The notes: generated by a model from the letters alone, not told the origin. 64,000 bases of DNA from Victivallales bacterium (GCA_963678815.1 OY787460.1:6394861-6458860); one strand, 5' to 3'; counted from the stretch's first letter, positions 9,990 through 64,000 are shown. Translations and numbers: made by a program.

Positions 9990-10008
9990 TTTAATCCTTC
10001 AATATTCA

Positions 10009-11781: not shown

Positions 11782-11800
11782 TATTATTCTACTTTATTCA

Positions 11801-14026: not shown

Positions 14027-14043
14027 TCTTTTTTATTCCTTTT

Positions 14044-39522: not shown

Positions 39523-40242
39523 ATGAAAATCTGGAAAAAACACTTCACGTTGATTGAACTGTTAGTTGTAATAGCAATAATTGCAATATTAGCGTCCATG
39601 CTGCTCCCCGCTCTCCGGCAAGCCAGGGAGCAGGCAAAAAAATCCGACTGCGCTAGCAAACTCAAACAGATCGGCACCGGTTTTATGGTGTATACCGATG
39701 ATTTCGGAGGATTCCTCCCGGTCCCAAATCCCGAACTGAAAGCCAACGGGTCCTGGGACGCGTCCAAAGGCAACTGGGCTTATGTAATGGAACGGGACAA
39801 CTATATCAAGGGCAAGAAAATGTTTCTGTGCGAAAACGCGGACAACCTGAATTATTACGGTACGCACCTGAATATAACCGGAACCAATCTTGCCGCTTGG
39901 CAATACATTTGTTACGGTTATAACGTGCTTCATCTGGGGAGCAGCCGCTACCTCGACCTGGCTTCGGGATTTCATGACAGCGCGAAACTATCCCAGCTCC
40001 AGAAGCCCTCGATCACAATCATGGCCGCCGATGCCTGGCATGAAGGGACCAGCCGGACTTCCGACACGCTGTTCGACAACTCAAGCGGTGTAACCCGGGA
40101 CTATAAACTCCATGCGCGGCATATGGGCACGTGCAACATCCTCCATGCCGACGGGCACGTTCAGAATTACCCGCAAGCTTTTATTGATGCTGAAATCTGG
40201 ATACGAAATAACCCGAACATGTATTTCAAGCGGAAAGAGTAA
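39523..40242 (+). CDS. Prepilin-type N-terminal domain protein, DUF1559 / H-X9-DG family (tandem paralog)
   Basis: [43 protein letters not shown]. The last 49 aa are identical to the 38480 paralog at 47 positions. Confidence 0.85.
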
Positions 40243-45545: not shown

Positions 45546-47030
45546 ATGATTTCGACAACCCCCAAACCTAATGTGCTGGTGATCCTTGCCGATCAGCACC
45601 GCTGGGACTGTATCGGCGCTAACGGCAATCCCGATATCAAGACCCCGAATCTGGATAAACTCGCCACGGAAGGAACTTCGTACCATAACAGTTTTACGGT
45701 ATTCCCGGTATGCACCCCGTCGCGCTATTCCCTGCTCTGCGGGAAATTCGTCCGGAATCACTGCTGCTGGACGAATCACGCCACTTTGCGCCAGGAATTT
45801 CCGACTTTCGCCCGAACCATGCGCAACAACGGTTACTCTACCGCGGCGGTTGGAAAGATGCATTTCAGCCCCACATACATCGACGTCGGTTTCGAGCGGA
45901 TGAAACTCTGTGAACAGCACGGCGACGGGCGCTGGGACGATGATTATCACCGTGAGTTGCGGAAACTCGACCTTGTTGACCGTCTTGACCTGCTCGACCA
46001 GCGTGACGAATATTTTGAAAACGCTCCGCCGGTGTATCACGAATCCTGCGGTTCCGAGCCAACCAACCTCCCCGAACACCTTTATTCAACCGAGTGGATA
46101 GCCGATAAAGCGTTGGAGGAGATCGACAATTGGAATCAGGATGGAAACTTATTGATGGTAGGGTTCGTCAAACCGCATCACCCGTTCGATCCTCCGCAAA
46201 AATGGTGGGACATGTACGATCCCGAGGAGCTTTCCCTGTTGCCCGGCTGGACAGAACAACCCCTTTCCGTGGATATGGACCGCGACCAAGGGCGTTTCCC
46301 GCATCCTGGAATCACTCCCGAACGCTGCCGGAATGTCATGGCGCGATATTATGCGGCTATCAGCGAAATCGATGAAAAAGTCGGCGAATTGGTTGGCCGG
46401 CTCAAACAGAAAAACATGCTCGATAATACCATTATAATCTACACCAGCGACCACGGCGATTACATGGGTTTCCATCACATGATCTTGAAATCCAATCATT
46501 TGTATGATCCTTTGATTAAAGTACCGCTGATTATCAGATACCCGGAAGCATTCAAGCCGTCGGTAAGTGACAGAATGGTTAGCAATATCGATATTTTTCC
46601 AACGTTGGTAGAACTTGCCGGATTACCGGAACCGGAAAACCTGCCGGGCATTTCAGTCCTTAACAAACAGGAGGAACATGAATTGATTTTCAGTGAAGTG
46701 GACCGGGGATATTACTCATTGGTCAGGTCGCGCCGGTATAAATTTATCCGGGACCGGAGAAATAACCTGGAATTGCTGTTCGATCTGGAAACCGATCCAT
46801 TCGAGGAACACAATGTTGCGGACAATCCTGAATATGCTGACACAAAAAAGCAATTAGCTGCCGCTCTGGACAACTGGGAAAAACAATTGGTTTGCAAAGA
46901 GAACCATCTCGATGAAAACGCCCCAGCCATTACTGCGCCAAATGTGCCGGAGAATATTTCCGGGCATCGAATAAGTATCGGCAAATGGTACAATGAAAAG
47001 ATGAAAAAGGAAATCCAGGTATATGGGTAA
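45546..47030 (+). CDS. Sulfatase (Cys-type), no signal peptide
   Basis: PKPNVLVILADQHRWD...FPVCTPSRYSLLCGKF...TSDHGD. Confidence 0.9.
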   Translation: MISTTPKPNVLVILADQHRWDCIGANGNPDIKTPNLDKLATEGTSYHNSFTVFPVCTPSRYSLLCGKFVRNHCCWTNHATLRQEFPTFARTMRNNGYSTAAVGKMHFSPTYIDVGFERMKLCEQHGDGRWDDDYHRELRKLDLVDRLDLLDQRDEYFENAPPVYHESCGSEPTNLPEHLYSTEWIADKALEEIDNWNQDGNLLMVGFVKPHHPFDPPQKWWDMYDPEELSLLPGWTEQPLSVDMDRDQGRFPHPGITPERCRNVMARYYAAISEIDEKVGELVGRLKQKNMLDNTIIIYTSDHGDYMGFHHMILKSNHLYDPLIKVPLIIRYPEAFKPSVSDRMVSNIDIFPTLVELAGLPEPENLPGISVLNKQEEHELIFSEVDRGYYSLVRSRRYKFIRDRRNNLELLFDLETDPFEEHNVADNPEYADTKKQLAAALDNWEKQLVCKENHLDENAPAITAPNVPENISGHRISIGKWYNEKMKKEIQVYG

Positions 47031-50026: not shown

Positions 50027-52180
50027 ATGATTAAGCGAAAAAATGACGGAATCACTATCAAGAGCGGTATTATTAAATCGCTTTACCTGAATGGCAATGA
50101 ATTAGTCGTGCCCGGTTCCGGAGAATCCTTGTGGAAAATGGAGTTAAGAAACCGGGAAACTTTAGAGACATGTTGTATATCCGCAACTGAATGTAAAGAT
50201 TGGAAACGGACTGAAGAAATCTTTCGTGAATCCGAAAAAATCACCTTAAAATATGTAATAAATGATAATAAAAAAGACATTATTTCCTTTAAAATTCAAG
50301 TAATTTTACGTGACGGCAAAGCGGAATTTAATTTTTTCATTAAAAGCATATTTGCTGATTGGCAATTGTCAAGGGTATGGTGTCCGGTGATACCCCTTGA
50401 ACGGCTTCCCGCCGGAAAAACTGACGGCAAACTTTTAATTCCGCATTACTGCGGACAGGTTATCCAAGATCTGCATAATGAACCGGAGAGAATTGTAGAT
50501 TACGGAGACGACGCTTTGATGGCAATTGCCCGTTGCCGGTATCCATCGAAACACGCAACTTTACAGATGGCTTTTTACTTTGGCGACGCAGGCGGAGCAT
50601 TGTTTATGACTCCAGATCCGCAACGCAAACTCAAGGAATTTTTATTCGACCGCAATCCGGAAACAAATGGAGTACGCGCAAGTTTTCTGCATTATTTCAA
50701 CAATCCGGAAACAGAAATAACTGATTTGAGTCCCGGTTGTCCCTCGGTAGTTGAGTGGGTTGACGGCGACTGGTTCGACGCCGCCCAGGTTTACCGGAAA
50801 TGGGCCGAACAGCAAACCTGGACGGAGAAAACCATTCCGGAGCGCGAAGATATTCCGGATTGGCTGAAGACTCTTCCGCACTGGCTCAGGACCCCGAAAG
50901 ACATCAATGTTCCCTGGGAAAATTTCATGGACTGGCCGCTGAAATGGGCCGAGGCCACAGGAAAACCGATGGGAGTGCATGTTTACGGCTGGGATGCTCC
51001 GGGCGGACCGGTAAATACCAATTATCCGAAAATGGGAAAGCCGCGCGCGGAGTTTGCGGAAATGGTGAAATGCTTTCATGACTCCGGGATTTTTGTTATG
51101 CCTTATACCAACACCAGAGTGACCTGCACCGACAGTCCGGCTTGGGATGATTTTAATGATACTCCGGTCCTGGACCGTAAGGGAAATATTGCTTCAGTTG
51201 AAAGTTGGGGCAGCAATACAACGGACCAGAAAGAGTTCAATCTGGCGATTAAAGGCGGCAGGAAAGTTAAATACGAAAATTACGCCGGTTTGCCTGCCAT
51301 GATGATATTTCATAATTTCGCGGTGAGTTGTGCCGGTGCGGAAAAATGGCAGGAAAATATTCGCGAAAACACCATGAGTCTGCTTATTGATGAAAAGGTT
51401 GACGCGGTTTATCAGGACCAGCTGGGAAGCATTCCGCTGATTTGCTACGACTCCCGGCACGGACATTATCCCGGAGATCCGGAAGCCTGGCAACGGGGAA
51501 CCGAAAAAACCTATCGCGAAATCCGTGAATCCATGCGCCGGGAAAATATCAAAGGGGCGCTGATTTCCGAATATATTTGCGAAGCGCAATTGCCGTATAT
51601 TCACGGCGCACTGACGATAAGCCCGGCAATGGCGTTCCATTCGGCACTGCCGCTTTTTCAGGCGATTTATCATCCTTATTTCATTTCTCTAGGCTGGATC
51701 GAAGCAAAACCGGCAAGTTTGAAGCGTGATAAACATGAGTATCTGCGTCAGCTCATGCAGCCGTTTTTTTACGGCAACCAGCTGGGCTGGTTTTTCTATA
51801 CTGTTGAGGAACTGATCGAGAATCATCCCGACTTGGTTTCGTGTTACCGGAAAATGGTTGATCTGCGGAAAAAATATCCGGAGATGCTTTGTTACGGAAG
51901 GCTGTTACGCCCTCCCCAAACCACCGGTTTCAAACAGGATGTTTTCGGAGCAATGTTTTCTGATTTGTCCGGGAAACGGATGCTGGCGGTGTTCGGAAAC
52001 TTTACGGAAAGGACGCAGAGCGGCAAAGCGGCATTGGATATTTCCACTGAAAAAGGACCGGCTGTGATTGATCTGGAGCTGCCCCCATGCTCAGTGCGGG
52101 AATTCGTGTTCACCAAGTCAGGTGTTAAACTTACAAATCTTTCCGGTACTGCAACGGAGAAACTCCGGTCTTCCGTTTAA
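50027..52180 (+). CDS. Cytoplasmic paralog of the 43324-45537 GH-like protein
   Basis: Same motif set (WFDAAQVYRKWA, VHVYGWD, MPYTNTRV, DAVYQDQL, GHYPGDPEAW, ISEY) but no signal peptide (MIKRKNDGITIKSG). Confidence 0.5.
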   Translation: MIKRKNDGITIKSGIIKSLYLNGNELVVPGSGESLWKMELRNRETLETCCISATECKDWKRTEEIFRESEKITLKYVINDNKKDIISFKIQVILRDGKAEFNFFIKSIFADWQLSRVWCPVIPLERLPAGKTDGKLLIPHYCGQVIQDLHNEPERIVDYGDDALMAIARCRYPSKHATLQMAFYFGDAGGALFMTPDPQRKLKEFLFDRNPETNGVRASFLHYFNNPETEITDLSPGCPSVVEWVDGDWFDAAQVYRKWAEQQTWTEKTIPEREDIPDWLKTLPHWLRTPKDINVPWENFMDWPLKWAEATGKPMGVHVYGWDAPGGPVNTNYPKMGKPRAEFAEMVKCFHDSGIFVMPYTNTRVTCTDSPAWDDFNDTPVLDRKGNIASVESWGSNTTDQKEFNLAIKGGRKVKYENYAGLPAMMIFHNFAVSCAGAEKWQENIRENTMSLLIDEKVDAVYQDQLGSIPLICYDSRHGHYPGDPEAWQRGTEKTYREIRESMRRENIKGALISEYICEAQLPYIHGALTISPAMAFHSALPLFQAIYHPYFISLGWIEAKPASLKRDKHEYLRQLMQPFFYGNQLGWFFYTVEELIENHPDLVSCYRKMVDLRKKYPEMLCYGRLLRPPQTTGFKQDVFGAMFSDLSGKRMLAVFGNFTERTQSGKAALDISTEKGPAVIDLELPPCSVREFVFTKSGVKLTNLSGTATEKLRSSV

Positions 52181-52961
52181 AGAACGAGGAAAAGACGTAA
52201 ACGTTGGCGAAGTTGAGCGATTCCGCGATTTCCGAGATGTTCCGTTCGGAGTTTTCGAGCATGTTCTGAGCCATGGAAAGTTTGCGGTTCAACCAGTATG
52301 AATAAGGATACATGCCAGTAACCGCTTTAAATTTTTTCCGGAAACTTTCATATCCCACTTTTTCCATTTTCAGAAACTTCTTGACATCGAAATGGCGCTC
52401 CCGGGTATTCTCATCGACATATTTCCGAAATTTTTCAATGATATTCAAGGATTCCTCATCGGAAAGGAATTCGTTGTGATATGTGCTGGTGATTTCCGCG
52501 AGCAGCGAACACAGTTCCCCGGACGCCTGGGCCGCCGCGATTCCAGTGTTTTTTTTGCTCATTTCAAGAATATACTCAAAAGAATAGCGGAATTTTCGCG
52601 GATTTTCCGGTTTTAAAACAATCGGTTTACCGGGGGAGATCATGTTCATCATGGTTTCCGCGAGTTTACCGTTAAATCTGATCCAGATGTGTTTGAAAAA
52701 CGCCCCGGGAACCGGCTTATAACTGTACCAGTGGCCCTGGAAGGCCAGAATCAAACAGTCCTTTTTAAAAAACATCGGCTTACCGCTGGCCCGGCTCAGG
52801 TATCCGGAGCCATCAAGCACGTAATCAAGCCCGTAAGCCCTTGGCATATAGCCGCCGGCCTTTTCATGGCGATTGTCGTCAATGACTGTTTCCGCCAGTT
52901 TGGTTATCTCAAGCACCGAGGAGAAAGCGTTTTCCGGAGGATAATAAATAACTTCTTCCAT
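52131..52961 (-). CDS. AraC family transcriptional regulator
   Basis: Cupin-like N-terminus. C-terminal HTH: ISEIAESLNFANVYVFSSFFKRKTGVSPLQYRKDL. The 3' end overlaps the convergent 50027-52180 gene by 50 bp. Confidence 0.9.
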   Translation of the reverse strand: MEEVIYYPPENAFSSVLEITKLAETVIDDNRHEKAGGYMPRAYGLDYVLDGSGYLSRASGKPMFFKKDCLILAFQGHWYSYKPVPGAFFKHIWIRFNGKLAETMMNMISPGKPIVLKPENPRKFRYSFEYILEMSKKNTGIAAAQASGELCSLLAEITSTYHNEFLSDEESLNIIEKFRKYVDENTRERHFDVKKFLKMEKVGYESFRKKFKAVTGMYPYSYWLNRKLSMAQNMLENSERNISEIAESLNFANVYVFSSFFKRKTGVSPLQYRKDL

Positions 52962-53075
52962 ATTGTACCTTTTTTAATAAAATATATACCTGTTCTTATA
53001 TTCCATTATCATACTTTATTGCATAACTTAATACAAGAGACTTAAGATGTAAAACTACTTTTGCGGGAATTTGAG

Positions 53076-54548
53076 ATGTTTGAATTCGATGCGGATAAAA
53101 TAGCCTTGAAAGGCAAAAAGATTTATGAAACGGCAGTGGGCTTGCTCAGACAGCACGGCATGCTGGTGCAGGATGAATTTTGTCGTGAAAGGATACTTCA
53201 GCATGACGGAACCCGGATTGAAGGAGAGCGGATTTGCTATTCCGGGGAATTGATCCGGAAGCTGGTTCCGTTTGACGGCAAAAATCAAGAGCAGCTCTGC
53301 GATACGGATGGAATGTCCTTTCATTTCCGTGGCAATTGCGAAGACGAAGCAGGATACCGTTTCCGCGCCGGTGGATTTGCCATGGCGGTTTACGATGCCG
53401 GGTTGAAAAAAACGCGTCCGTCAACCATGAAAGACCTTGAAGAAGCTTTAATGCTATGTGACGTAATGGGTTTTGGGGGACATTATCCCTGTACTGCCAC
53501 GGACTGCAATCCGGAGCTGAGAAATGTGGCTTCGCATTACATGAACTTCAGTAAATCCAGGTTTAACTGTACACATGTTTGTATCGGTACGGAGCAGGCG
53601 GAATTCATTTACCGGCTGCACGAAGTAATGGGACCTGAAGCCCGGATGCCTATCACCATGACCATTGTTACACCGTTCCGGATCGAGGAAACCAACCTGA
53701 AAGTTATCAGGTATTTCATGGAAAAAGAAGTGCCGTCGGAGTCAATCCGGATAGTTCCGGTAGCATATGGTCTGGGAGGAATGAATTACCCGATCACCCT
53801 GGGCGGTTCCTGGGCCTTGAGCATTGCCGAACACATGGGATTGAAAACAACCGCAACACTGCTGGACAGCGGATTTAAAATCGAACCGGGGATCGGCCCG
53901 GCCGGAATTGGCCCGATAGATTTCAACAACATGTGTCTGGCGCTGGGAAATCCGAACCAGTTTTTTTATCATTTCGCGAATAATATCCTGGCGCATGCCG
54001 TGTTCGGTCGCGACTGGCGGGAATACCCGGTAATTCCCCAGGAACTCTGGACCGGAAGCCCGGTTCCGGATTCCCAGGCCGCGGCCCAGAAACTCGCCGC
54101 CGCGATTTTCGGTCATTTGCACGGCTGTAAAAGATTCAGCACCCTGGGCAATCTTTGCGTCGACGATGTCTTCTCCTGTGAACAGATGCTTTTGGACACG
54201 GAAATGATAAAATACGCCGGACAGGTGGTAACACAGTTCGGCAAAGCTGATGATTTCATGGACCTGGCGAGTTTAGAGCAGGAGGTAAACGACTTTGTTA
54301 TAAACGGCACAAATTTCATGATGGCGGATTCCACCCTGAGACATCTTCGAAACCTGTGTCCGGAACCCGGAATATTCGTTCACAAAAAGCTTCCCGCTAT
54401 TTCCAATACCGGCAGTGACCGGTTGCTGAAAAAACTTACGGCACGGAAAGAAAAGTTGTTGAAACAATATGATTTCGCTTTGCCGGAATCACAGCAGCGT
54501 GAACTTGATAAAATTTTCGCGGAAGCCCAAAAGAAACTAACAGAATAA
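53076..54548 (+). CDS. MttB-superfamily (trimethylamine methyltransferase-like) protein, divergent, non-pyrrolysine
   Basis: N-terminus KGKKIYETAVGLLRQHGMLVQDEFCRERILQHDGTRIEGERICYSGELIRKLV follows the family's N-terminal pattern. Central YPITLGGSWALSIAEHMG corresponds to the PVTLAG region. The track start at 53061 is a TTG; I prefer the ATG at 53076. Confidence 0.65.
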   Translation: MFEFDADKIALKGKKIYETAVGLLRQHGMLVQDEFCRERILQHDGTRIEGERICYSGELIRKLVPFDGKNQEQLCDTDGMSFHFRGNCEDEAGYRFRAGGFAMAVYDAGLKKTRPSTMKDLEEALMLCDVMGFGGHYPCTATDCNPELRNVASHYMNFSKSRFNCTHVCIGTEQAEFIYRLHEVMGPEARMPITMTIVTPFRIEETNLKVIRYFMEKEVPSESIRIVPVAYGLGGMNYPITLGGSWALSIAEHMGLKTTATLLDSGFKIEPGIGPAGIGPIDFNNMCLALGNPNQFFYHFANNILAHAVFGRDWREYPVIPQELWTGSPVPDSQAAAQKLAAAIFGHLHGCKRFSTLGNLCVDDVFSCEQMLLDTEMIKYAGQVVTQFGKADDFMDLASLEQEVNDFVINGTNFMMADSTLRHLRNLCPEPGIFVHKKLPAISNTGSDRLLKKLTARKEKLLKQYDFALPESQQRELDKIFAEAQKKLTE

Positions 54549-54563
54549 TAGCAAAACAAGAAA

Positions 54564-55994
54564 ATGAAAAAACCCAATATTCTCTACATAATGACCGACC
54601 AGCACCGGTTCGACTCGTTGAGTTGCACCGGTAATCGCGGGGTGCGTACCCCAAATATCGACAGCATTGCAGAGTCCGGGGCGAATTTCCGAAACGCCTG
54701 TACGCCGTCGCCGGTTTGCGCACCCGCCCGGGCCGCGATTTTCAGCGGACAGTATCCGCCTGGCTGCGGGGTCACGGGCAACTGGCTTCCCTTCAACGGC
54801 AATCAGGTATTGATGACCGATCAACTGAAACGCGCCGGATACGATACCGCATGTGTAGGAAAACTGCATTTTGTTCCGCACGTCTGCAGTTGGGGATTCG
54901 ATCACAAAGAACTTCATGACTGCCCGTGCAGCATCTACGCTGACGATGACAAATATTCCGCATACATTGATTACCTTAAGGAAGTCTACGGCGAAAAAGC
55001 GGGCGCGGAGCTTGTAAAAATGTTCGACGAGGATGAATTGTGCTATCCGAAGGGCATGAAGCAGTTTATTCTCGGCCGCAATTTCATTCCAGAGGAACAC
55101 CACATGGTTACCTGGACCGCAAACCGTTCGGTGGAATATCTGAAAAATCGTGAAAAATCAAATCCGTTTTTCATGCACGTGTCTTTCATGGGACCGCACC
55201 AGCCCTGGGACGTGCCGGAAAACTGGCGGAGAATAAAACCGGAAGACATAAAGGTTCCCGAATTCGACGACGATTATTCCGATAAACCGATCATTCTGAA
55301 AACCAAGCAGAACAACTTCAGGGAATTCAAGAAACAGCTTACTAAAGATGATTACCGCTTTCTGATCTCTCAATATTTGAACCACGTGGAAATGATCGAC
55401 CATTATATCGGTAAACTCTTTGAACAACTTAAGCAGTCCGGGGAATGGGACAACACCATGATTATCTTTACCTCCGATCATGGCGACCACAACGGTCAGT
55501 ACGGTTTATTTTTCAAAGGGACGATGCTGGAAACCTCGGTAAAAGTGCCCCTGATAATCAAACCTCCCGGCGGAATTGCGGAAAAAGAAGTAGTTGATCC
55601 GGTGTCTTTGCTGGACCTTTACGGGTCCATTCTGGACACTGCCGGAATATCGGACTGGAAATATGAGCAGATTGAATCCGGTTCACTAAACAATTATCTT
55701 AAAATGCCCTCGACCACCGGACCAGGCAAATGCTTTTCATATCACCGCAACAATGGAGCAACGGTTCTTACCATGTACCGCGACGGCAAGTTCAAACTTG
55801 TCAGGTGTGAAAAAAATGACGCCCCAATCCTTTATGAATTCTATGAACTCAAAGCTGGCCGGCTGGATGGCGGAAACCTGTTCGATTTTCCCGCTTATCA
55901 ATCAAAAATCCGCGATATGAAAAAAATTCTGGATGATTGGTCGGAACAGCAGAAAACCCCGGCAGCCCATAACTGGCGCAAAAGTAAGCCGTAG
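54564..55994 (+). CDS. Sulfatase (Cys-type, CAPAR variant), no signal peptide
   Basis: MKKPNILYIMTDQHRFD...SPVCAPARAAIFSGQYP...TSDHGD. It lies 15 nt downstream of the MttB-like gene. Confidence 0.9.
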   Translation: MKKPNILYIMTDQHRFDSLSCTGNRGVRTPNIDSIAESGANFRNACTPSPVCAPARAAIFSGQYPPGCGVTGNWLPFNGNQVLMTDQLKRAGYDTACVGKLHFVPHVCSWGFDHKELHDCPCSIYADDDKYSAYIDYLKEVYGEKAGAELVKMFDEDELCYPKGMKQFILGRNFIPEEHHMVTWTANRSVEYLKNREKSNPFFMHVSFMGPHQPWDVPENWRRIKPEDIKVPEFDDDYSDKPIILKTKQNNFREFKKQLTKDDYRFLISQYLNHVEMIDHYIGKLFEQLKQSGEWDNTMIIFTSDHGDHNGQYGLFFKGTMLETSVKVPLIIKPPGGIAEKEVVDPVSLLDLYGSILDTAGISDWKYEQIESGSLNNYLKMPSTTGPGKCFSYHRNNGATVLTMYRDGKFKLVRCEKNDAPILYEFYELKAGRLDGGNLFDFPAYQSKIRDMKKILDDWSEQQKTPAAHNWRKSKP

Positions 55995-56032
55995 TCTGAT
56001 ATTTTCTCAGAATTGACCTGACGCAGCAAGTT

Positions 56033-58261
56033 TTAAATGGACAATTCCGCTAAAATTCTGTTTTCTTCCGTGGCGTTTTCTCCCGGGCCCCATTCGTAAC
56101 TTCCGCCAGGTTTGAGCATAAGATTCTTAACAATACCTGGAGCCGTGAGGTTAATTTTTTTGAATTCCATATTTTTATTTTGAACTTTTAATTCAATCAT
56201 TTTACCATCGTTCATCTTTGCGGAAACAGCGATACCGTCATGAGTTATAATATTTTTGATTTCAATATTTTTCCATCTTGCCGGGAGCATATCAAAAATC
56301 ATTAATTTTTTTCCCTGGCGGTTAATCAGCAGTGAATTTACCGCAAGAATAAAACTTGCATGCGAAGTAAAAAACCAGTTTAGGACCAGTTCCCCATGAT
56401 AAAATACTCTTTCAGGAATCCCTCCGTAATAATTAGTGAATTTAGCGCATTTTATCAATCTGTCCCAAGCTTCAGGAATACGTTTCTCAGCTAGAATACG
56501 GGAAATCCAATATTCAGTCCAGGTAAAAATCCGGTCTTTGTACGAAATTACGTTGTGAGAGTGATAGCTATCCAGTTCCGCATCGTAAAAAGACATTTCA
56601 TCGATGGTTTTCCTCCAAGCCGGATGCTCCGGGAACAGATTAAATATAAGTGACCCCCAATGTGGCAGCGCGCCGCCGACGAACGACTGCAAAACACCGT
56701 TCTCATCGATATTATCGTTCATGGCCATTAAAACCATATTTTCAACAATATCCAGGTTTTCCCGATATGGCGATTTCTTAAGCTTATTGCATGTATTTAG
56801 ATAGTAAGCAATAGCTTTCGCGGTAACCGCCGCCGTCCATGTATCGGTTCTTTTCAGTTCGCTTTCCGATTCATCAATCCCGGAACATTCACGAAGATAA
56901 GCCTTGCCATTTTCAACTTTTACTAATGCTTCTATGAGAAATATCAAAGCGTTTTCCATGGTTTCGAACATCTCGCTGAGAAATTTTATATCTCCTGAAT
57001 TCTCAAAGCACTGCCATATCTGAATAACGATTATACCGTTGTTATGATACTGGCGGCATTGTTCAGGGCGCAAGTTAAAATTCTTGCGGTTGGTTGTCCA
57101 GGCAAACCTTGCGCCGGGAATCCCCATTTTTTTTGCAAGCGCTTTGGCTTCCGGCAGTTTATCCTTCCAGAAATATGAAATCTTTCTTGAATAATCCGCA
57201 TGGTCAGATCTTAGCCACGCCATTGACGCAAACCACGAATCCCAGAACATTGCGTTTTCAAACATGTAGGGAAGTATCCCCATTGGCAAGAATCCGGTGT
57301 CCCATTCGATATTGCTTTTCATAAGATAGAGACTGCAATTATAAATGAATTCCAGTTTTTTATCGGGAAGGTTAATCGAAGATTTTGAAAAATATTTCTC
57401 CATTTCCAATTCGTGGTTTTTCACAATATGATTGTAACCGAAGCTGTTTACACTTTTTATCAATTCATCCATATACTGTTGCGGATTTGATAAATCAGTA
57501 TCATCAATGATTGCGGTATAATTGGTAATGGTATCGCCTTTATTAAGCTTCCGGGTCACCAATTTATGCGGCGAATAATTTTTTTTGTCATAAATAAGAT
57601 TTTCAGGAAATTCGCAAACGGATGCCGGACAGTCCGTCCAGGTTGCGGCAACTCCCGAAAATTTTTTAAACTGGTATGAAAACTGAAATCCGTTTGAGTT
57701 TTTCATATTGGAAAATTCAACTTTTTCCGGTCTTATGCAAAGATCATATTGAGACGGGCGCACTGCCGGCCCCATCAGGAATTCAATAGTAAAATCCACT
57801 TCAGGAACTTCCAGGACTTCATAATGTTTAACCAGAATATGGCTGCCGGTCAGAAATGTTTTTACCTTTATCTTGAGGATTCCGCGGCTGCGATGGCAAC
57901 GCTGAGAAAAAACCGTGGTTACGATTCCTTTTTTCGGATCAAAAAACTGTTCCGTCCGCGATATGCCAATCGCCTGTATTCCCAATTTCAAGATAACGTT
58001 CATGTCGGCCAGACAAACACTGTGCCCATACGACATGTTGGAAAATTCATAATCTTTACGCCCGGTTTTATACCAGCCGAATGAACAGCCCCGTGAAAGT
58101 TGAGGAGAATATTCCAGTGACCCGTGCGAATCAGTTGAGCCGATCATGTTAATCATCATTGCGTCAATACCATTTGCGAGTATCACCGGGAAGTAAGGAC
58201 GTCCGGGAAAATATCCCCCGTCCTCCGTAAGTATCATATTATTATTTTTCTGATCAAGCAT
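56033..58261 (-). CDS. (alpha/alpha)6 six-hairpin glycoside hydrolase/phosphorylase-like protein (GH65/GH15/GH63-like)
   Basis: NAMFWDSWFASMAWL and GIPGARFAWTTN resemble the FWDTE / G-A-x-(F/Y)-P-W motifs of GH65-type enzymes. It has an N-terminal beta-sandwich plus C-terminal beta domain, and no signal peptide. Confidence 0.6.
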   Translation of the reverse strand: MLDQKNNNMILTEDGGYFPGRPYFPVILANGIDAMMINMIGSTDSHGSLEYSPQLSRGCSFGWYKTGRKDYEFSNMSYGHSVCLADMNVILKLGIQAIGISRTEQFFDPKKGIVTTVFSQRCHRSRGILKIKVKTFLTGSHILVKHYEVLEVPEVDFTIEFLMGPAVRPSQYDLCIRPEKVEFSNMKNSNGFQFSYQFKKFSGVAATWTDCPASVCEFPENLIYDKKNYSPHKLVTRKLNKGDTITNYTAIIDDTDLSNPQQYMDELIKSVNSFGYNHIVKNHELEMEKYFSKSSINLPDKKLEFIYNCSLYLMKSNIEWDTGFLPMGILPYMFENAMFWDSWFASMAWLRSDHADYSRKISYFWKDKLPEAKALAKKMGIPGARFAWTTNRKNFNLRPEQCRQYHNNGIIVIQIWQCFENSGDIKFLSEMFETMENALIFLIEALVKVENGKAYLRECSGIDESESELKRTDTWTAAVTAKAIAYYLNTCNKLKKSPYRENLDIVENMVLMAMNDNIDENGVLQSFVGGALPHWGSLIFNLFPEHPAWRKTIDEMSFYDAELDSYHSHNVISYKDRIFTWTEYWISRILAEKRIPEAWDRLIKCAKFTNYYGGIPERVFYHGELVLNWFFTSHASFILAVNSLLINRQGKKLMIFDMLPARWKNIEIKNIITHDGIAVSAKMNDGKMIELKVQNKNMEFKKINLTAPGIVKNLMLKPGGSYEWGPGENATEENRILAELSI

Positions 58262-58300
58262 CTACGTATCCTGTTAATGTTCACCCTCATCATAATTTCT

Positions 58301-58351
58301 TAATCGATTATGCAATGGTGTTATTATACCTCAATACCGGAATTACGTCAA
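58301..58351 (-). promoter_or_regulatory. Promoter of the six-hairpin GH with TAATCGATTA operator
   Basis: Minus strand reads TTGACG (58351-58346), 17 nt, TATAAT (58328-58323), with the palindrome TAATCGATTA (58301-58310) about 13 nt downstream. Confidence 0.55.
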
Positions 58352-58539
58352 GTATTTTTACTTGAATATTACGATTTTCAGTCAATGAATTAAGTCTGCA
58401 CTTACAGATAATTACAAGTCCGGGCCACATAAGCGCCGCGATATTGCTGCTTAATTGTCAGGAAAATTGGCACTTGTCATTGCGATTTGGAGAATCCATG
58501 ACAATATTATAAAGTAAACGGAAGGTATCCGGATCGATT

Positions 58540-59640
58540 ATGAAAAATGAGTTACTGCCAAAATACTACGTCATCAAGGAAAAGTTAAAAAAACAAATCC
58601 TTGACGGGGAATATGCTCCCGGTGATCTTCTTCCTTCCCAGAACGAGTTGATGAAATCCGAACAGGCCAGCTACTCTACTATTTCACGGGTACTGACGGA
58701 ATTAAAAAACGAGAACCTCATTTACCGGGTTGGCGGCAAAGGCACTTACGTCCAGAAAAGAGCGGTTTTCGTTAAAGAAAAAATGAAGATATGGATAGCA
58801 TTATTAGAACAAGATGATTCAGATTCCACCGAAAAAGACAATTTGGGGTTCCCTCATGTTGAACTGATGCACAGCATTATTGCTTATTGCGCATCAATCG
58901 GAATGCAGGTGAAACCGGTATATCACGACGATAACGATTTTATAAACCAGGAAGTATATGATTCAAATTCAGGAATCATCTTCCTTGCCTCATCCGGCAA
59001 ACAGCATCTTTTTGAACGCCTGAACAGCCTCAATGTCCCTTATGCCGCACATGCCCCAATGGATTGCATTTATGGCAATTACAACGCCGTGACCGTGAAT
59101 GTCAACCACGGGGCCTACCTGGCAACAAAGGCGTTAATCGATGCAGGACACAGAAACATTGCATTTTTTCATACCCCCAGTAAAAATGATTTCTGGGCCT
59201 TGCCCAAATTCGACGGATATAAAAAAGCATTGCGGGAAGCCGATATAGAATTTCGCGAGGAATTAATACTAAGATCAAAATGTGTTACGCAAGATTGCAC
59301 AAAAGAAGCCGAACATTTTTTCAGCAGGAACGGTTCCGCTGAAAAGGTTACCGCCCTGTTCGCGATAAATGATACCAGGGCCCTGGCCGCAATGAAAGTC
59401 ATGACCGGACTGGGAATCAAAATCCCGGACGATATAGCGGTTGTCGGCTATGATGACTTACCGCAATCCAGAAACTGTCAAATTCCGCTGACAACGGTTA
59501 AATTACCATGTGAAGAAATGGGAAAAGCGACAGTCAAGCTACTGCTTTTACTCGCTCAGAAACCGGAGTTCGCGCCTCTCATTAAAGTAATGAAATCAGA
59601 AATGATTTATCGAGAATCTTTTCCGGATCCAGGTGTTTGA
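58540..59640 (+). CDS. AraR-type regulator: GntR winged HTH + LacI/GalR-type (PBP1) sugar-binding domain
   Basis: HTH: YAPGDLLPSQNELMKSEQASYSTISRVLTELKNENLIYRVGGKGTYV. Effector domain: GHRNIAFF...FDGYKKAL...ALFAINDTRALAAMKVM...IPDDIAVVGYDDLP...PLTTVKLP. Confidence 0.85.
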   Translation: MKNELLPKYYVIKEKLKKQILDGEYAPGDLLPSQNELMKSEQASYSTISRVLTELKNENLIYRVGGKGTYVQKRAVFVKEKMKIWIALLEQDDSDSTEKDNLGFPHVELMHSIIAYCASIGMQVKPVYHDDNDFINQEVYDSNSGIIFLASSGKQHLFERLNSLNVPYAAHAPMDCIYGNYNAVTVNVNHGAYLATKALIDAGHRNIAFFHTPSKNDFWALPKFDGYKKALREADIEFREELILRSKCVTQDCTKEAEHFFSRNGSAEKVTALFAINDTRALAAMKVMTGLGIKIPDDIAVVGYDDLPQSRNCQIPLTTVKLPCEEMGKATVKLLLLLAQKPEFAPLIKVMKSEMIYRESFPDPGV

Positions 59641-59688
59641 GATAATTTTCCAGTAAAATAGAAATTCAGATAAAGCATCATTTTTGCC

Positions 59689-60546
59689 ATGAACACATCA
59701 TTCAAACCGTGCTTATGGTCACCGTATCCCCGGCTGGTTCACGATTTCAAAAATCCGGCCACCGGGGAATATGTTTACTTTAAATCCCAACTCACCGACC
59801 ACGCGCTGCATTATTTTCTATCTGGTTCCGGGAAGTACAACCTTGAAGGAAAAACCTACCGAATCGAACCGCATATGCTGTTTGCGGTGCGCCCCGACAC
59901 CGGCTACAGTTTCAATCTTTTCCCCAATACAAAACCGCGCATGCTGAACATCCATTTTGACCCGATCGAACAGGAGGATTCCAATTACCCGTTTCCGTAT
60001 CCCCCCGGCAAGCGAACAGTGCCTCCGGTGGTCATGCCGCGCGACTTTCCCTCGGCAATGCGGATGCACAATCATCAAAACTACGAACAACTTTTTTATC
60101 AGTTGCACGCTATCTGGCAGCTGCCGGGAATGAATTGGCGGCTCAAAAGCAAAAGCCTTATGCTGGAAATCCTGGGATTGCTTTACACGAATACCGGGGA
60201 AAATCCGCCGGGAACGGAAGCATTTCACCGCGAAACTGTAAAAAAAGCATTGGAACATATTCAACAAAACCTCCACCGGAAAATCCCCCTGGACGAACTT
60301 GTCGCGGCAAGTGGAGTATGCCGCGCATTGTTCATCAGGATATTCAAGGAAGAGTGCGGAATGCCCCCGGCAAGATACATAAGCAAACTGAAAATCGACA
60401 AGGCCAAAAATGAACTCGCCTATCATGACACCCCAATCAAGGAGCTGGCCGACAATCTGGGGTTTGTCAATGTCCATCATTTCACCCGGATATTCCGGGA
60501 GTTCGCCGGCATTCCTCCCGGACAATACAAAAAACACATAAAATAG
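59689..60546 (+). CDS. AraC family transcriptional regulator
   Basis: Cupin-like N-terminus (YRIEPHMLFAVRPDTGYSF). C-terminal HTH: PPARYISKLKIDKAKNELAYHDTPIKELADNLGFVNVHHFTRIFREFAGIPPGQYKK. Confidence 0.9.
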   Translation: MNTSFKPCLWSPYPRLVHDFKNPATGEYVYFKSQLTDHALHYFLSGSGKYNLEGKTYRIEPHMLFAVRPDTGYSFNLFPNTKPRMLNIHFDPIEQEDSNYPFPYPPGKRTVPPVVMPRDFPSAMRMHNHQNYEQLFYQLHAIWQLPGMNWRLKSKSLMLEILGLLYTNTGENPPGTEAFHRETVKKALEHIQQNLHRKIPLDELVAASGVCRALFIRIFKEECGMPPARYISKLKIDKAKNELAYHDTPIKELADNLGFVNVHHFTRIFREFAGIPPGQYKKHIK

Positions 60547-60577
60547 ACATTTAGACAAATATTTATACTTCCCGGCA

Positions 60578-60606
60578 AAGACATTTTTCCTTTTCCGCCG
60601 TATTAT
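60578..60606 (+). promoter_or_regulatory. Candidate promoter placing the transcription start at or next to the GRE start codon
   Basis: AAGACA (60578-60583), 17 nt, TATTAT (60601-60606). The ATG at 60614 is 7 nt after the -10, and no Shine-Dalgarno is visible. Confidence 0.3.
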
Positions 60607-60613
60607 TTACGAC

Positions 60614-62947
60614 ATGAATAATACACGAAAATCAAAGTTGGAACTTCTGAAACAGGATGTTACGGAGCGGCACGGTTCGTTTGTTCCTGAAATGAATATT
60701 TTCCGCCGTGACCTGGCGTTATGGAACTCGGCGGTTAATTACGGGCAATCGATCATTACCACCAAGGGGGGACTGCTCCTTGAACTGGTTAAAACCGTGA
60801 CAATAAAAATCTTCCCGCACTGGACACTCGCCGGGGAACACCTGATATATTCTAGTGAAAAGCATTCCCAAAATGCTTTTTTCGGGTTCAAGCATGCAGT
60901 TGTGGAAGAACATCTGGAAGAACTCGAGGCCATGAATTTTTCGGAGGAACAGGCTGTAGCGATCCCGGAACTGGTGAAAAAAATAACTCAACTCAGGGGA
61001 AATCTTGTCGGGCATCCCAAACCTGAATCCGGCAAAGAACCGTATGAAGACGCATACCATCAGAAAAATCTGGAAATTCTTTTGGCCCGGGGCTGGATGG
61101 AAAATCATTCGATCCGCGACTTCGCAAAACTGGTCAAAATTGGATTTTCCGGACTAAAAAAAGAAGTGCGAAATGAGCTGTCCGGGCTTGATATCGCTTC
61201 CCCCGAGTACGCGGAAAAAGAAAATTTCCTTACTGCCGTTTCACTGGTCTGCGACGCCGGAATCCTGCTGGGAAAACGCTATGCGGAACTGGCAAGGGAA
61301 ATGGCCGGCAAAGCCGATAATCCGGAAGAAAAACGGCGGCTGTCAATGATGGCCGAAACCTGTGAAAAAGTGCCGGGGAACGGCGCGCAAACCTTCCGTG
61401 AAGCAGTCCAGGCGCTCTGGTTCGGACATATCATGACCTGCGCCGAAGACGGCATTAACGCCAACTCCATCGGCAGACTCGACCAGATATTGTATCCATA
61501 TTATGAAAAAGATCTTGCCAGCGGACGCATCACCCGGCAGGAAGCACTGGAACTGATGGAGGAACTCGCCTGCAAGCTATATCTGGATTATGACGTCCAG
61601 GCGATCACTCTCGGCGGTGTGGACAGAAACGGCAAGTGCGCCGTGAATGAACTCAGCTACATAATCCTGGAAGCCACCGAAAACTTCGGGCTGATCCGGG
61701 ACCTGTCGGTTAGGATCAATGATGACACCCCGGAAGAGTTTATCGATGCATGTTCGCGGCTGATTGTCAGGGGCGGAGGCATTCCGTTTATTTTCAATGA
61801 CGATTCTTTTATCAAGGCGCTGACCGACCGGGGAATCAGTCCGGAAGACGCCACCGACTACGCTCCAATCGGCTGTGTTGAACTCACGATTCCCGGCAAA
61901 GCCAATCCCCATGCGGTATCGGGCTGGTTCAATTCAACCAAATGCCTGGAGCTGGCGCTGTTCAATGGCGTCGACCATCGTAGCGGTTGCCAGTTCGGGC
62001 CGAAAACCGGCGAGCTTTCTACGTTCAAAAGCTTCGATGAGCTGTATAAAGCATACTGCGCCCAGGTTAAGTTCTTTGCCGACCGGATGGTTTACCGCTG
62101 CAACGCCGGGGAGCTTAAACAGCGCGACTTCGGCCCCATGCCTTGCTGGTCACTCCTGACCGACGACTGCATCAAGCGCGGAAAAGACATTACCAACGGC
62201 GGTCCGCTTTACAACTATCATTCAATCTGCTTTCTCGGCGCTCCCGACACCGCCGACTCGCTCTTCGCCATGAAAAAATGTCTGTTTGAAGAAAAAAACG
62301 TTGATCCCGAAACTTTGCTGGAAGCGCTCCGCAATGACTTTTCCGGATTCGAGATTCTGCAAAAACAGCTACGGAAACTGCCGAAATACGGCAACGACAT
62401 CAGTGAAGTTGATTTACTGACAAAACAGGTTTGCGACGACTTTATCAGCCTGATGGACACCATGCGCAGTCCCCTCGACGGCAGATACTTTGTGCATCTG
62501 TTTACGTTCATCCTGAACCTTTCTTTCGGGAGAGCGGTCGGGGCGATGCCGGACGGACGGAACGCCGAAACCCCGCTGGCATATTCGCTCTCGGCCCATC
62601 AGGGACGCGATGAAAAAGGTCTCACCGCCATGCTGAACAGCCTGGCGAAACAGCCTCACGATAAAGCTGCCGGAGGATCGGCGGCGATCATTGATATTAA
62701 TCCGTCACTTCTGCAGGGGAGCGGCAAGGAGAAGCTGATGAGCAATATTATCAGGACCGGACTGAAAATGGGCATCGGCCAGATGCAGTGGAACATTACC
62801 ACGGTTGAACAACTGGAAAAGGCCCGGAAAGATCCTGACCGGTATGGCAATACCCCTGTGCGGGTGGCCGGATACTCCCAGATGTTCAAACTGATCACCC
62901 CGGAACTCCAGGACCATATTATTGCCCGGACAAAACACCAATCCTGA
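60614..62947 (+). CDS. Glycyl radical enzyme (PFL-fold; GCVE-type 1,2-eliminase/dehydratase-like)
   Basis: C-terminal glycyl radical motif TPVRVAGYSQMFKLITPELQDHIIARTKH (Gly codon at 62870-62872). Cys loop YAPIGCVELTIPGK (Cys codon at 61874-61876). 777 aa. Confidence 0.9.
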   Translation: MNNTRKSKLELLKQDVTERHGSFVPEMNIFRRDLALWNSAVNYGQSIITTKGGLLLELVKTVTIKIFPHWTLAGEHLIYSSEKHSQNAFFGFKHAVVEEHLEELEAMNFSEEQAVAIPELVKKITQLRGNLVGHPKPESGKEPYEDAYHQKNLEILLARGWMENHSIRDFAKLVKIGFSGLKKEVRNELSGLDIASPEYAEKENFLTAVSLVCDAGILLGKRYAELAREMAGKADNPEEKRRLSMMAETCEKVPGNGAQTFREAVQALWFGHIMTCAEDGINANSIGRLDQILYPYYEKDLASGRITRQEALELMEELACKLYLDYDVQAITLGGVDRNGKCAVNELSYIILEATENFGLIRDLSVRINDDTPEEFIDACSRLIVRGGGIPFIFNDDSFIKALTDRGISPEDATDYAPIGCVELTIPGKANPHAVSGWFNSTKCLELALFNGVDHRSGCQFGPKTGELSTFKSFDELYKAYCAQVKFFADRMVYRCNAGELKQRDFGPMPCWSLLTDDCIKRGKDITNGGPLYNYHSICFLGAPDTADSLFAMKKCLFEEKNVDPETLLEALRNDFSGFEILQKQLRKLPKYGNDISEVDLLTKQVCDDFISLMDTMRSPLDGRYFVHLFTFILNLSFGRAVGAMPDGRNAETPLAYSLSAHQGRDEKGLTAMLNSLAKQPHDKAAGGSAAIIDINPSLLQGSGKEKLMSNIIRTGLKMGIGQMQWNITTVEQLEKARKDPDRYGNTPVRVAGYSQMFKLITPELQDHIIARTKHQS

Positions 62948-62985
62948 TCAGGATTGCGTCAGCAAAGTTCCGGTTCAAAATCTGC

Positions 62986-64000
62986 TTAAACCGTTAAATC
63001 GCAACCTTCCGGCAGTCCCTGGAGAAACATCAGGATATCAGCCTGCATGAATGCGCATTCAGTGATGCCATTAGTATTGTCGCGCATTTCCGGCAGTCCG
63101 TCCCGTCCGACCCGGCGGCAGGCATGGTTAAGCAGCTTCGCGGCGGCGGCGGAATTTTCTTCCCCGCCCTTGCGCAACAATACGTTGATAGTGATGAAAT
63201 AAGTCCACAGGTTGAATTTTGCGGATGAAGTTTCAAACTCCTCCCAGTTCAGTGTACCATCCGGATTTATGCTGCCGCGCAGAAATTCACATCCCTTGGC
63301 AAGCGACGACTTACATTTGTCCATATCCTGCTGAGTAAAAGGACTGACCACCATTTGCGACGCATGCTCCATCACGTTTAAAAGACACCACAATACCAGC
63401 GAGGTGTAATTGATAGTTGTCCAACCGTAATCCCGGTACGGCATACAACCGTTTTCCCATTGCAGTCCGAGGGTATGACTTACCGCCCGTTTCACCCCCT
63501 GGGAAAAAATGTTCAGCCTTTTGCTGTAAATCTGATCAAGAACGCGTCCGATCAGGAATAAAGCGTCGGCAGTATGCATGTTGGCGTTCAAGGTGTCGTA
63601 AGGAGAGCGTTCATGGTGTGGAAAAATGCCGGAACCCGGTGGAAATTCAATGCCTAGAAACCAGTGACCGGCATTTTGCAGACAGTCCATGTAGCTTTTT
63701 TTCGGTGGCAGGCCATTGAGCAATGCTTCCGCCATTCCGTGAATGGCAAATCCGGTGGAGATTGTCGACAATTCCTCCCGCCCGGTTTTTTCCCAGTCGG
63801 AAGGTTTTTCATGATTCTGAATCTCGAACCAGCCCCCCCGCGAATGCTGACGGCTGACCAGCCAATCGAAAGCAAGTTCCGCGCGATGTTGAATATCTTT
63901 ATCACCGGTCATCCACAGCGCAAGCGCTCCACTCCCGCAACCGCGGTGATGATGGGCGCCCCCAGCGTTCCAGTCGAGCAACGGACCGTGATAAGCCTTT
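62986..64000 (-). CDS. alpha/alpha-toroid protein with prenyltransferase/terpene-cyclase-like (QW-type) repeats, partial (N-terminus beyond right edge)
   Basis: The frame stays open upstream of the TTG at 63981 to the window edge (KAYHGP-LLDWNAGG...). It contains LVSRQHSRGGWFEI and INPDGTLNWEE, which are QxxxGGW/DGxW-like repeats. Function unknown. Confidence 0.4.
   Translation of the reverse strand, partial: KAYHGPLLDWNAGGAHHHRGCGSGALALWMTGDKDIQHRAELAFDWLVSRQHSRGGWFEIQNHEKPSDWEKTGREELSTISTGFAIHGMAEALLNGLPPKKSYMDCLQNAGHWFLGIEFPPGSGIFPHHERSPYDTLNANMHTADALFLIGRVLDQIYSKRLNIFSQGVKRAVSHTLGLQWENGCMPYRDYGWTTINYTSLVLWCLLNVMEHASQMVVSPFTQQDMDKCKSSLAKGCEFLRGSINPDGTLNWEEFETSSAKFNLWTYFITINVLLRKGGEENSAAAAKLLNHACRRVGRDGLPEMRDNTNGITECAFMQADILMFLQGLPEGCDLTV

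Follow-up and report, generated by a model that had tools for sequence, protein, structure and literature searches.

Glycyl radical enzymes (GREs) carry out chemically difficult anaerobic reactions. Here we describe a GRE gene of a Victivallales bacterium (GCA_963678815.1, OY787460.1:6394861-6458860), together with the regulator gene that precedes it, and consider which kind of reaction the enzyme may catalyse and from where it may be activated. The gene lies near the right-hand edge of the 64,000-nucleotide stretch of DNA that was analysed, which we call the window and to which all coordinates refer. It occupies positions 60614 to 62947 of the plus strand and encodes a protein of 777 residues. 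Upstream on the same strand is a gene for an AraC-family regulator composed of a cupin-like sensor domain (AraC_binding) and an HTH_18 domain (59689 to 60546), which is preceded by a gene for a regulator that joins a GntR helix-turn-helix domain to a Peripla_BP_3 domain in an AraR-type architecture (58540 to 59640, plus strand; hereafter the GntR-PBP regulator). The gaps are short, with 48 bp separating the two regulator genes and 67 bp separating the AraC gene from the GRE gene. An earlier interpretation made from the nucleotides alone (hereafter the sequence-only reading) had placed an AraC and an AraR-type regulator upstream of the GRE, and Pfam matches bear out both. The host DNA has a guanine plus cytosine (GC) content of about 44%. 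Positions 50614 to 64000 are also covered, without gaps and at 99.75% identity, by the Joint Genome Institute (JGI) metagenome contig L004, which reaches 4.8 kb beyond the right edge of the window and so extends the visible DNA to about 69 kb. This contig keeps the GRE gene intact.

The GRE gene and its product

Pfam annotation was applied to all 43 large open reading frames (ORFs) of the window. The GRE product matches the PFL-like domain PF02901 (E 4.4e-145) and the Gly_radical domain PF01228 (E 4.4e-17), and it displays the features by which the superfamily is recognised, namely a PFL-like ten-stranded barrel domain, a C-terminal domain with an RVxG[YF] loop and a catalytic Cys. Three segments of the plus strand encode the residues on which our interpretation turns. 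Positions 61106 to 61117 encode an HSIR strand (ENHSIRD in the translation) that contributes His165 and Arg168, both 100% conserved in the 115 family sequences introduced below. The Cys loop PIGCVELTIPG (61865 to 61897) holds Cys421 and Glu423 of the CXE motif, and within it C421, E423, T425, P427 and G428 are all invariant. Finally, the glycyl radical loop VRVAGYSQ (62858 to 62881), which falls within the Pfam Gly_radical match, carries Gly753 and is likewise invariant. The catalytic Cys421 aligns with C433 of glycerol dehydratase (GD), C441 of YbiW and C420 of PflB. The RVAGYS and GCVE motifs that had drawn attention to this ORF are thus confirmed, and the gene is predicted to code for an intact GRE with a complete set of catalytic residues.

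Two peculiarities had been attributed to this protein. It was considered short, which is not so given that GD has 787 residues, PflD 765 and the A. fulgidus PFL2 protein 776, with family members spanning about 730 to 840. The Leu that follows GCVE was also singled out, and it does distinguish the enzyme from GD and the propanediol dehydratases (PDs), which have Pro at this position (GCVEP), but there is a precedent for it in the GCVELSIPG loop of PflD. An AlphaFold2 (AF2) model built from the family alignment has a predicted local distance difference test (pLDDT) score of 86 and a predicted template modelling (pTM) score of 0.90, with a low-confidence N-terminal segment at residues 130 to 152 (61001 to 61069; pLDDT of about 40). 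The first 164 residues have no sequence alignment to solved GREs, as the alignment to the best solved relative, the glycerol dehydratase 1R8W (E 3.5e-114), begins at residue 165. The model matched more than 40 GRE structures at a template modelling (TM) score of about 0.85 and superposes alike on all eliminases and isomerases (TM 0.82-0.87).

Placement among known glycyl radical enzymes

Relatives of the window GRE were collected from a search among 5.8 billion proteins, which gave at least 120 full-length clusters with 54-62% identity to the query, and from a metagenome scan that yielded 80 further loci with a family GRE. When representative genome contigs were scanned with the GRE protein a single fragment matched (L003, Victivallis sp.). 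All of the protein clusters are unnamed or generically named. Their hosts are Planctomycetota, Phycisphaerae, Lentisphaerae, Chloroflexi and other metagenome-assembled genomes, and their habitats include anoxic sediments, freshwater and lakes, peat, digesters and, in the form of Victivallis-like contigs, the human gut. The family can be multi-copy, since L062 holds a tandem pair of family GREs (9902-12289 and 12267-14651, plus strand) that score 957 and 899 bits to the query.

An alignment of 115 family sequences, to which 16 GRE paralogues from the same loci and eight reference enzymes (GD, two PDs, HypD, IseG, YbiW, PflD and PflB) were added, was used to calculate a neighbour-joining tree; CutC, HplG, HpyG, HpzG and HpfG are characterised GREs that stand outside this reference set. 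The 115 family sequences form a monophyletic clade, whose members share at least 49% core identity with one another and no more than 40% with GD, PD, HypD, IseG, YbiW, PflD and PflB. For the query itself the core identities are 37.5% to GD, 36% to both HypD and YbiW, 35-36% to the PDs, 35% to IseG, 32% to PflD and 26.5% to PflB. Curated NCBIfam models, each with its own bit-score cutoff, gave the same picture, as the GRE falls under the cutoff of every one of them and reaches at most 424 bits with the equivalog models, the cutoffs of which are 994 or higher: 475.9 bits against 678.2 for the PFL2/glycerol dehydratase subfamily (TIGR01774), 423.8 against 1100 for HypD (NF043068), 414 against 1000 for HpsG (NF048011), 363 against 1000 for HpfG (NF048009), 343.7 against 1050 for CutC (TIGR04394), which was judged by model score alone, and 324.4 against 1109 for the PflD type (NF007437).

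The Glu of the CXE motif has a defining role in the 1,2-eliminase/isomerase clade of GREs (PMC13450708), and Glu423 is present in 100% of the family, which supports the assignment to the CXE eliminase-type enzymes made in the sequence-only reading. Tight clustering with a known GRE subfamily, with all its specificity residues intact, would have spoken against that reading, but the GRE does not cluster with any characterised subfamily. The characterised CXE-type GREs are set out in a June 2026 review, which describes whole clades as still unvalidated (PMC13450708); none of these characterised enzymes corresponds to the window GRE clade. A literature search on this clade, or on GREs of Kiritimatiellales, Lentisphaerae and Phycisphaerae, found nothing relevant. 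Judged by these sequence comparisons, the window GRE is a member of an uncharacterised monophyletic clade within the CXE (1,2-eliminase/isomerase) branch.

The active-site signature

Pocket residues of the window GRE were assigned by alignment to the pocket positions of other GREs. Four residues with expected catalytic roles (His165, Cys421, Glu423 and Gly753) are invariant across the family. His165 aligns with His164 of GD, the proposed general acid of that enzyme (PMC13450708), and a His also occupies this position in PD, YbiW and PflD, all of which are C-O-cleaving GREs. C-S lyases carry Gln at the position of GD His164 (PMC13450708; position via alignment offset). Residues that bind the substrate in known enzymes are replaced. 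Relative to GD the changes are H281 to N282, S282 to A283, W445 to H433, H446 to A434, D447 to V435 and Y640 to F630, with the replacements themselves 94-100% conserved. Where the C-S lyases have their sulfonate-binding Arg/Gln/Arg triad, the window GRE has W161, H165 and H628.

Other residues are specific to the family. R168 is Val or Ile in GD, PD, YbiW and PflD and His in IseG; H628 is Gly in GD, PD, YbiW and PflD and Arg in IseG; Y657 is Asp or Glu in the CXE-type references; and S658 is Gly in all references. Additional family-specific residues are N284, T425, H536, Q663 and R665. In this alignment Asn, His, Tyr, Ser and Arg are frequent among the invariant residues at putative pocket positions. 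A polar, family-specific set (R168, N282, N284, H433, H536, H628, Y657 and S658) appears to take the place of the specificity residues known from diol dehydratases, C-S lyases and HypD. The predicted picture is of an enzyme with the catalytic residues of C-O-cleaving eliminases and isomerases in which the determinants of specificity for every known substrate class are missing.

A conserved AraC-GRE module

The genomic neighbourhoods of family GREs were surveyed in 87 loci using six-frame ORFs with phmmer and hmmsearch, and proportions were calculated for a stricter subset of 25 non-redundant loci with at least 5 kb readable on either side. Unbiased clustering of the neighbours in the 87 loci gave only three recurrent partners: an AraC regulator (13 loci), other GREs (13 loci) and an activase (about 11 loci). 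The remaining recurrent neighbours are generic genes of glycan loci, encoding GH2, GH78, sulfatase, IclR, DUF1559, URO-D-like and NrdD proteins. No dehydrogenase, kinase, aldolase, transporter or shell protein is recurrent beside the family GRE in these loci. As a separate observation, NrdD, the class III anaerobic ribonucleotide reductase and itself a GRE, lies beside a family GRE in L016, L066 and L082 (for example L082:204-2858).

An orthologous AraC gene is found directly upstream of the GRE gene and on the same strand in 12 other loci, a count in which L004 duplicates the window itself and L071 duplicates L069, and in 8 of the 25 non-redundant loci. In the tree the query falls into a subclade made up of L001, L002, L005, L008, L009, L069/L071, L080 and the window, and every locus of this subclade with readable context is AraC-linked. 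These loci range in GC content from 37 to 62% and include human-gut contigs (L069 and L071), and across all loci the linkage is kept over a range of 37-65% GC. By this conserved gene order AraC and GRE form a two-gene module. The sensor domain of the AraC protein has no informative relative in the Protein Data Bank (PDB) or NCBIfam. The GntR-PBP regulator is not among the recurrent neighbours and is not fixed in position or strand across L001, L002 and L005; it is a neighbour and not a conserved partner.

A candidate cis-element accompanies the module. The 9-mer CAGATAAAG occurs at 59667 to 59675 (plus strand), 14 nt 5' of the AraC start codon, and this is its sole exact copy in the 64 kb window. 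In L001, L002 and L009 the same 9-mer is found 5' of AraC and is repeated 55-68 nt 5' of the GRE start (L001:9006 and 9928; L002:9018 and 9933; L009:9011 and 9933), and L008 has it at position 482. In the window the 67-bp AraC-GRE intergenic region (60547 to 60613, plus strand) contains degenerate copies, TTTAGACAAATA at 60550-60561 and GGCAAAGACA at 60574-60583, as well as a weak promoter-like site at 60578-60606 with a 9/12 match that is not above chance for the region. Scans for promoters and terminators gave nothing above chance and Rfam found no RNA element. We regard CAGATAAAG as a candidate operator or promoter element that the two genes of the module may share.

A probable activase encoded in trans

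Each GRE depends on a glycyl radical, and in the mechanism considered below an activase installs it. The absence of such a gene from this locus was a central claim of the sequence-only reading, which reported no activase, microcompartment shell, aldehyde dehydrogenase or sulfite-handling gene in reach. This description proved accurate for the window. Pfam annotation of the 43 large ORFs detected no radical-SAM, aldehyde dehydrogenase, bacterial microcompartment (BMC) shell or sulfite-handling genes, and small intergenic ORFs gave only noise. A CX3CX2C motif is absent from all ORFs of at least 40 residues in the six frames of the window. Additionally, a hidden Markov model (HMM) of activases from related loci, along with E. 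coli PflA, PflC and YbiY, returned noise when compared with the window (best E = 0.62). The 4.8 kb of L004 beyond the right edge is also devoid of an activase, such that none is present within 60.6 kb upstream or 5.8 kb downstream of the GRE gene in the window and L004 combined.

Other members of the family are differently arranged. An activase gene directly follows the family GRE in L017, L018, L019, L028, L030, L067 and L083, and since activases adjoin family GREs in other organisms, the family uses a conventional activase. Among the 25 non-redundant loci an activase lies within 5 kb in seven and another GRE lies nearby in five, while none has both an activase and the AraC gene. In the query subclade no readable locus has an activase nearby. 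A search with the activase of L009, a close AraC-type relative, led to P0188, a protein of 309 residues that is 60% identical to it and has Radical_SAM and ferredoxin (Fer4) domains. The sole contig of P0188 is 8,611,128 bp long with NCBI and European Nucleotide Archive (ENA) as sources, and the same size and sources are recorded for P0001, a 100%-identical copy of the window GRE. P0188 is also 57% identical to the L030 and L067 activases, whose genes come directly after a family GRE, and falls in the same cluster as these and as P0190. The latter, returned by the same search, is encoded on a 5,611,985-bp contig that carries the L005 AraC-GRE pair, about 96 kb from that pair, where it directly follows a 702-residue GRE of another unassigned family.

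This other GRE family, of about 700 residues, is a recurrent companion. It has the Gly loop VRIGGYTD and the Cys loop TCVEITPRG, typically has an activase gene directly downstream, and is represented by L091:7889-9997 (plus strand), L048:15598-17793, L023:2164-4416 and L010:5954-8233. A member of 713 residues, P0328, is on a contig of 8,611,128 bp. Short-family GREs and activases were found on contigs of equal size in six cases (73371, 36252, 20881, 26237, 18526 and 5851), and window-family and short-family GREs in four (21992, 29639, 21615 and 10104). The short-family GRE may be a core GRE whose activase serves dispersed GREs, and sharing of one activase by the window GRE and the short-family GRE is plausible from these co-occurrences. 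The genome may also hold further activases. There is a precedent for such activation in trans in E. coli, where TdcE is a GRE activated by PflA from another locus (PMC13450708). However, TdcE and PflB have an identical Gly loop while the co-resident GREs discussed here differ (VRVAGYSQ versus VRIGGYTD), and because of this difference sharing is not assured.

Two further arrangements were observed. Head-to-tail arrays of three to five different GREs with one or two activases occur at L010:1264-14042, L048:6782-18244 and L017:1875-12206; the L010 array consists of five GRE ORFs followed by one activase, and the array members are at most 37% identical to characterised GREs. In L001, the locus of the closest homologue, a 115-residue activase-like fragment (12321-12668, minus strand; 88 bits) lies 71 bp past the GRE gene and adjoins a phage-type integrase gene (12889-14196, minus strand), which suggests that the L001 activase was truncated by rearrangement.

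The description of the window GRE as an orphan thus stands as far as the window is concerned, but probably not for the genome, as an activase is found on a contig of the same 8,611,128 bp as P0001 and trans-encoded activases are normal for the subclade. The orphan state is probably the normal arrangement for the query subclade, with the activase encoded in trans beside another GRE. P0188, as a predicted cognate-type activase, would largely resolve the puzzle of the missing gene.

Proposed reaction and alternative explanations

We consider it slightly more likely than not, at roughly 0.55, that the window encodes a functional GRE that acts as a C-O-cleaving eliminase or isomerase, with a distant activase and an AraC partner, on a polar carbohydrate-derived substrate unlike known GRE substrates. 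A polar, polyhydroxylated small molecule of glycan origin is proposed as the substrate because many invariant Asn, His, Tyr, Ser and Arg residues align with pocket positions or lie close to them, the Cys loop is like that of PflD and the hosts degrade glycans. When oxygen is absent the distant activase would install a radical at Gly753, which would pass to Cys421 to form a thiyl radical. This radical would take a hydrogen from a carbinol carbon of the substrate, the hydroxyl of which would be hydrogen-bonded to Glu423. Deprotonation of the hydroxyl by Glu423 would give a ketyl radical that would then expel the beta oxygen group with His165 as general acid, the leaving group being either water or the alkoxide of a ring or ether, the latter in the manner of YbiW and PflD. 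Cys421 would finally return the hydrogen. The AraC partner presumably senses the substrate and turns on the GRE gene. The suggestion that the enzyme performs new GRE chemistry on a sugar itself is compatible with the PflD-like Cys loop and the predicted polar pocket. A more specific version is that an undescribed radical C-O cleavage takes place on a glycan-derived monosaccharide (for example opening of an anhydro or ether bridge, dehydration of a deoxy or amino sugar, or elimination of a sulfate ester) and that one activase beside the core short GRE serves several dispersed, AraC-controlled GRE families; in this full form we regard the proposal as tentative and rather doubtful.

The substrates that had been put forward as candidates, 1,2-propanediol or glycerol, isethionate or 2,3-dihydroxypropane-1-sulfonate (DHPS), choline and hydroxyproline, are each disfavoured by residues and curated model scores. 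The closest of the corresponding enzymes are the C. butyricum glycerol dehydratase (1R8W/1R9D) and the propanediol dehydratases (5I2A, 9RCO), which are the best matches to the window GRE in sequence and fold (TM 0.85) and have in common with it the CXE Cys loop, the His at GD 164 and the Gly loop RVAGYS. If the enzyme were a divergent B12-independent diol or glycerol dehydratase, the aldehyde would be produced from glycerol or from 1,2-propanediol that arises when fucose or rhamnose is fermented; GH78 rhamnosidase genes do occur near family GREs in four loci, and anaerobes related within the Planctomycetota-Verrucomicrobiota-Chlamydiota (PVC) group excrete 1,2-propanediol from fucose (PMC7356697). 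We nevertheless find this explanation unlikely. The diol-binding residues H281, S282, H446, D447 and Y640 of GD are all lost in favour of conserved replacements, W445 is replaced and Leu takes the place of Pro after the Glu, the TIGR01774 score is well under its cutoff, and the TM-scores that seem to favour diol dehydratases are equal for all eliminases. Furthermore, there is no adjacent activase, and genes for aldehyde or alcohol dehydrogenase, phosphotransacylase and BMC shell proteins, which would mark a GRE-associated microcompartment (GRM) locus, are found neither in the window nor among the recurrent neighbours of the 87 loci. The isethionate and DHPS sulfite-lyases (IseG 5YMR, IslA 7KQ3 and HpsG 6LON) also belong to the CXE clade and have the same fold at about 35% identity. 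A lyase that cleaves the C-S bond of isethionate or DHPS, or the C-N bond of choline, could be tied to the MttB-like and sulfatase genes of the window, two of which are MttB-like, and the HpsG and CutC models are significant though sub-threshold. This is very unlikely, as Trp161, His165 and His628 stand at the positions of the Arg/Gln/Arg triad, the HpsG, HpfG and CutC scores reach less than half of their cutoffs, genes for sulfite handling or reduction or for trimethylamine (TMA) handling are absent from the window, and the MttB-like genes are not conserved neighbours.

YbiW and PflD (8ID7, 8ID0, 8YJO), which open 1,5-anhydrohexitol-6-phosphates, are the only characterised GREs that act on sugars. 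The PflD Cys loop GCVELSIPGR is nearly identical to GCVELTIPGK of the window GRE, the His and CXE residues are common to all three enzymes, and ring-opening isomerisation of this kind ("anhydroglycolysis") would suit a sugar-degrading host. Direct equivalence is still quite improbable given an identity of only 32-36%, the low score with the PflD model and the loss of the PflD His432/Asp433 dyad. In E. coli the YbiW and PflD genes adjoin their own activase, phosphotransferase system (PTS) components, a fructose-6-phosphate (F6P) aldolase and a sugar phosphatase, none of which is conserved beside the window family. A radical beta-eliminase that expels a sulfate or phosphate ester from a sugar, which would amount to non-hydrolytic desulfation in sulfated-glycan catabolism, could tolerate loss of the H446/D447 acid/anchor dyad because its leaving group is a good one, and it would make use of the invariant R168, R665 and H628 gained by the family, H628 standing where IseG and IslA have their sulfonate-binding Arg. 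The host region has seven sulfatases, but sulfatases are not abundant in most loci of the family, which is also found in freshwater, peat and digester Chloroflexi and Planctomycetota. Retention of His165, which as a general acid would serve a poor leaving group, likewise speaks against this purely inferential idea, which we hold to be improbable. Lastly, the GRE could be a stranded, non-functional enzyme whose activase was lost by rearrangement; the visible DNA lacks an activase gene, and the activase-like fragment beside the L001 integrase indicates that such rearrangements happen. This is extremely unlikely for a full-length ORF with catalytic residues invariant across a clade of at least 49% identity, an AraC linkage conserved over the whole GC range, a cognate-type activase (P0188) on a contig of equal size, and an intact gene in the 99.75%-identical strain represented by L004.

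Several observations weigh against our preferred interpretation of a C-O-cleaving enzyme with a polar carbohydrate-derived substrate. AF2 confidence is low at the Cys loop (residues 421-430, 61874-61903), where pLDDT is about 52. The polar pocket is derived from alignment and not from coordinates, and R168, H536, Y657, S658, Q663 and R665 are only putatively pocket-lining. The placement of P0188 beside P0001 on one contig rests on equal size and sources. The Gly loops of the co-resident GRE families differ, as described above, and the sequence of this loop is thought to govern activase specificity (PMC13450708). Finally, the genomic context points to no pathway, because no conserved downstream enzyme or transporter joins the module.

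Gene content of the surrounding region

By Pfam content the window is a sulfated-glycan utilisation region. It encodes seven sulfatases, GH2, GH38 and GH65-like proteins, a heparinase II/III-like protein, two DUF6259 proteins, five GFO/IDH/MocA oxidoreductases, six DUF1559 proteins, three AraC regulators, two MttB-like proteins and one URO-D-like protein. The glycan-degradation setting proposed in the sequence-only reading is therefore evident in the window, and is seen in the loci of relatives as well. A proposed link between the GRE and the pairs of MttB-like and sulfatase genes did not hold up, as those genes are not conserved neighbours of the family GRE. The convergent gene downstream of the GRE (62986 to 64000, minus strand) is cut by the window edge and encodes an all-helical protein of 378 residues in L004. 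It had been labelled an alpha/alpha-toroid protein, which could not be verified: its SQHop_cyclase_C match is sub-threshold, it has no PDB relative, and a single-sequence AF2 model is all-helical at low confidence (pLDDT 41). This gene is not conserved beside family GREs and is no part of the AraC-GRE module. Beyond the window, L004 contains the rest of this helical protein, an IclR regulator, another GntR-PBP regulator, a GHL10-like protein and two unknowns.

Several other features of the region deserve mention. MttB-superfamily genes at 16324-17703 (minus strand) and 53061-54548 (plus strand) adjoin sulfatase genes, and a URO-D-like (methyltransferase-like) protein is encoded at 35623-36726 (plus strand); no corrinoid protein was seen. 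URO-D-like genes also occur near family GREs in six loci (for example L042:1387-2841). The DUF6259 genes at 43324-45537 and 50027-52180 (both plus strand) flank a segment (45546-50025) with a sulfatase gene and a gene for a GH38 alpha-mannosidase-like protein of 1000 residues and are preceded by a gene for a beta-helix protein. The arrangement resembles an uncharacterised, compact cassette for glycan processing. Positions 1126-1854, 2055-2831, 17742-18512, 38480-39193 and 39523-40242 encode small proteins that combine a prepilin-type N-terminal methylation motif with DUF1559, and similar proteins are present in L001, L005 and L028. Scattered proteins of this DUF1559/prepilin type are typical of Planctomycetota, Lentisphaerota and Kiritimatiellota.

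Significance

To our knowledge, each newly assigned GRE clade has so far given a new metabolic route, as exemplified by choline to TMA, hydroxyproline, isethionate to H2S and anhydroglycolysis. The clade described here is widespread in anoxic habitats and the human gut, occurs in the genomes of glycan-degrading specialists and differs in its active-site signature from every characterised GRE. The GRE is a worthwhile characterisation target and not an anomaly, and it is a tractable one because its AraC partner offers a route to the inducer. For example, the AraC regulator and its promoter could act as a biosensor for the inducer, and so probably for the substrate. The occurrence of several dispersed GRE families together with fewer activases also bears on the question of GRE activase specificity. 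If a radical C-O cleavage of a glycan-derived monosaccharide does take place, it would give PVC bacteria an oxygen-independent step for degrading sulfated algal or mucin glycans under anaerobic conditions.

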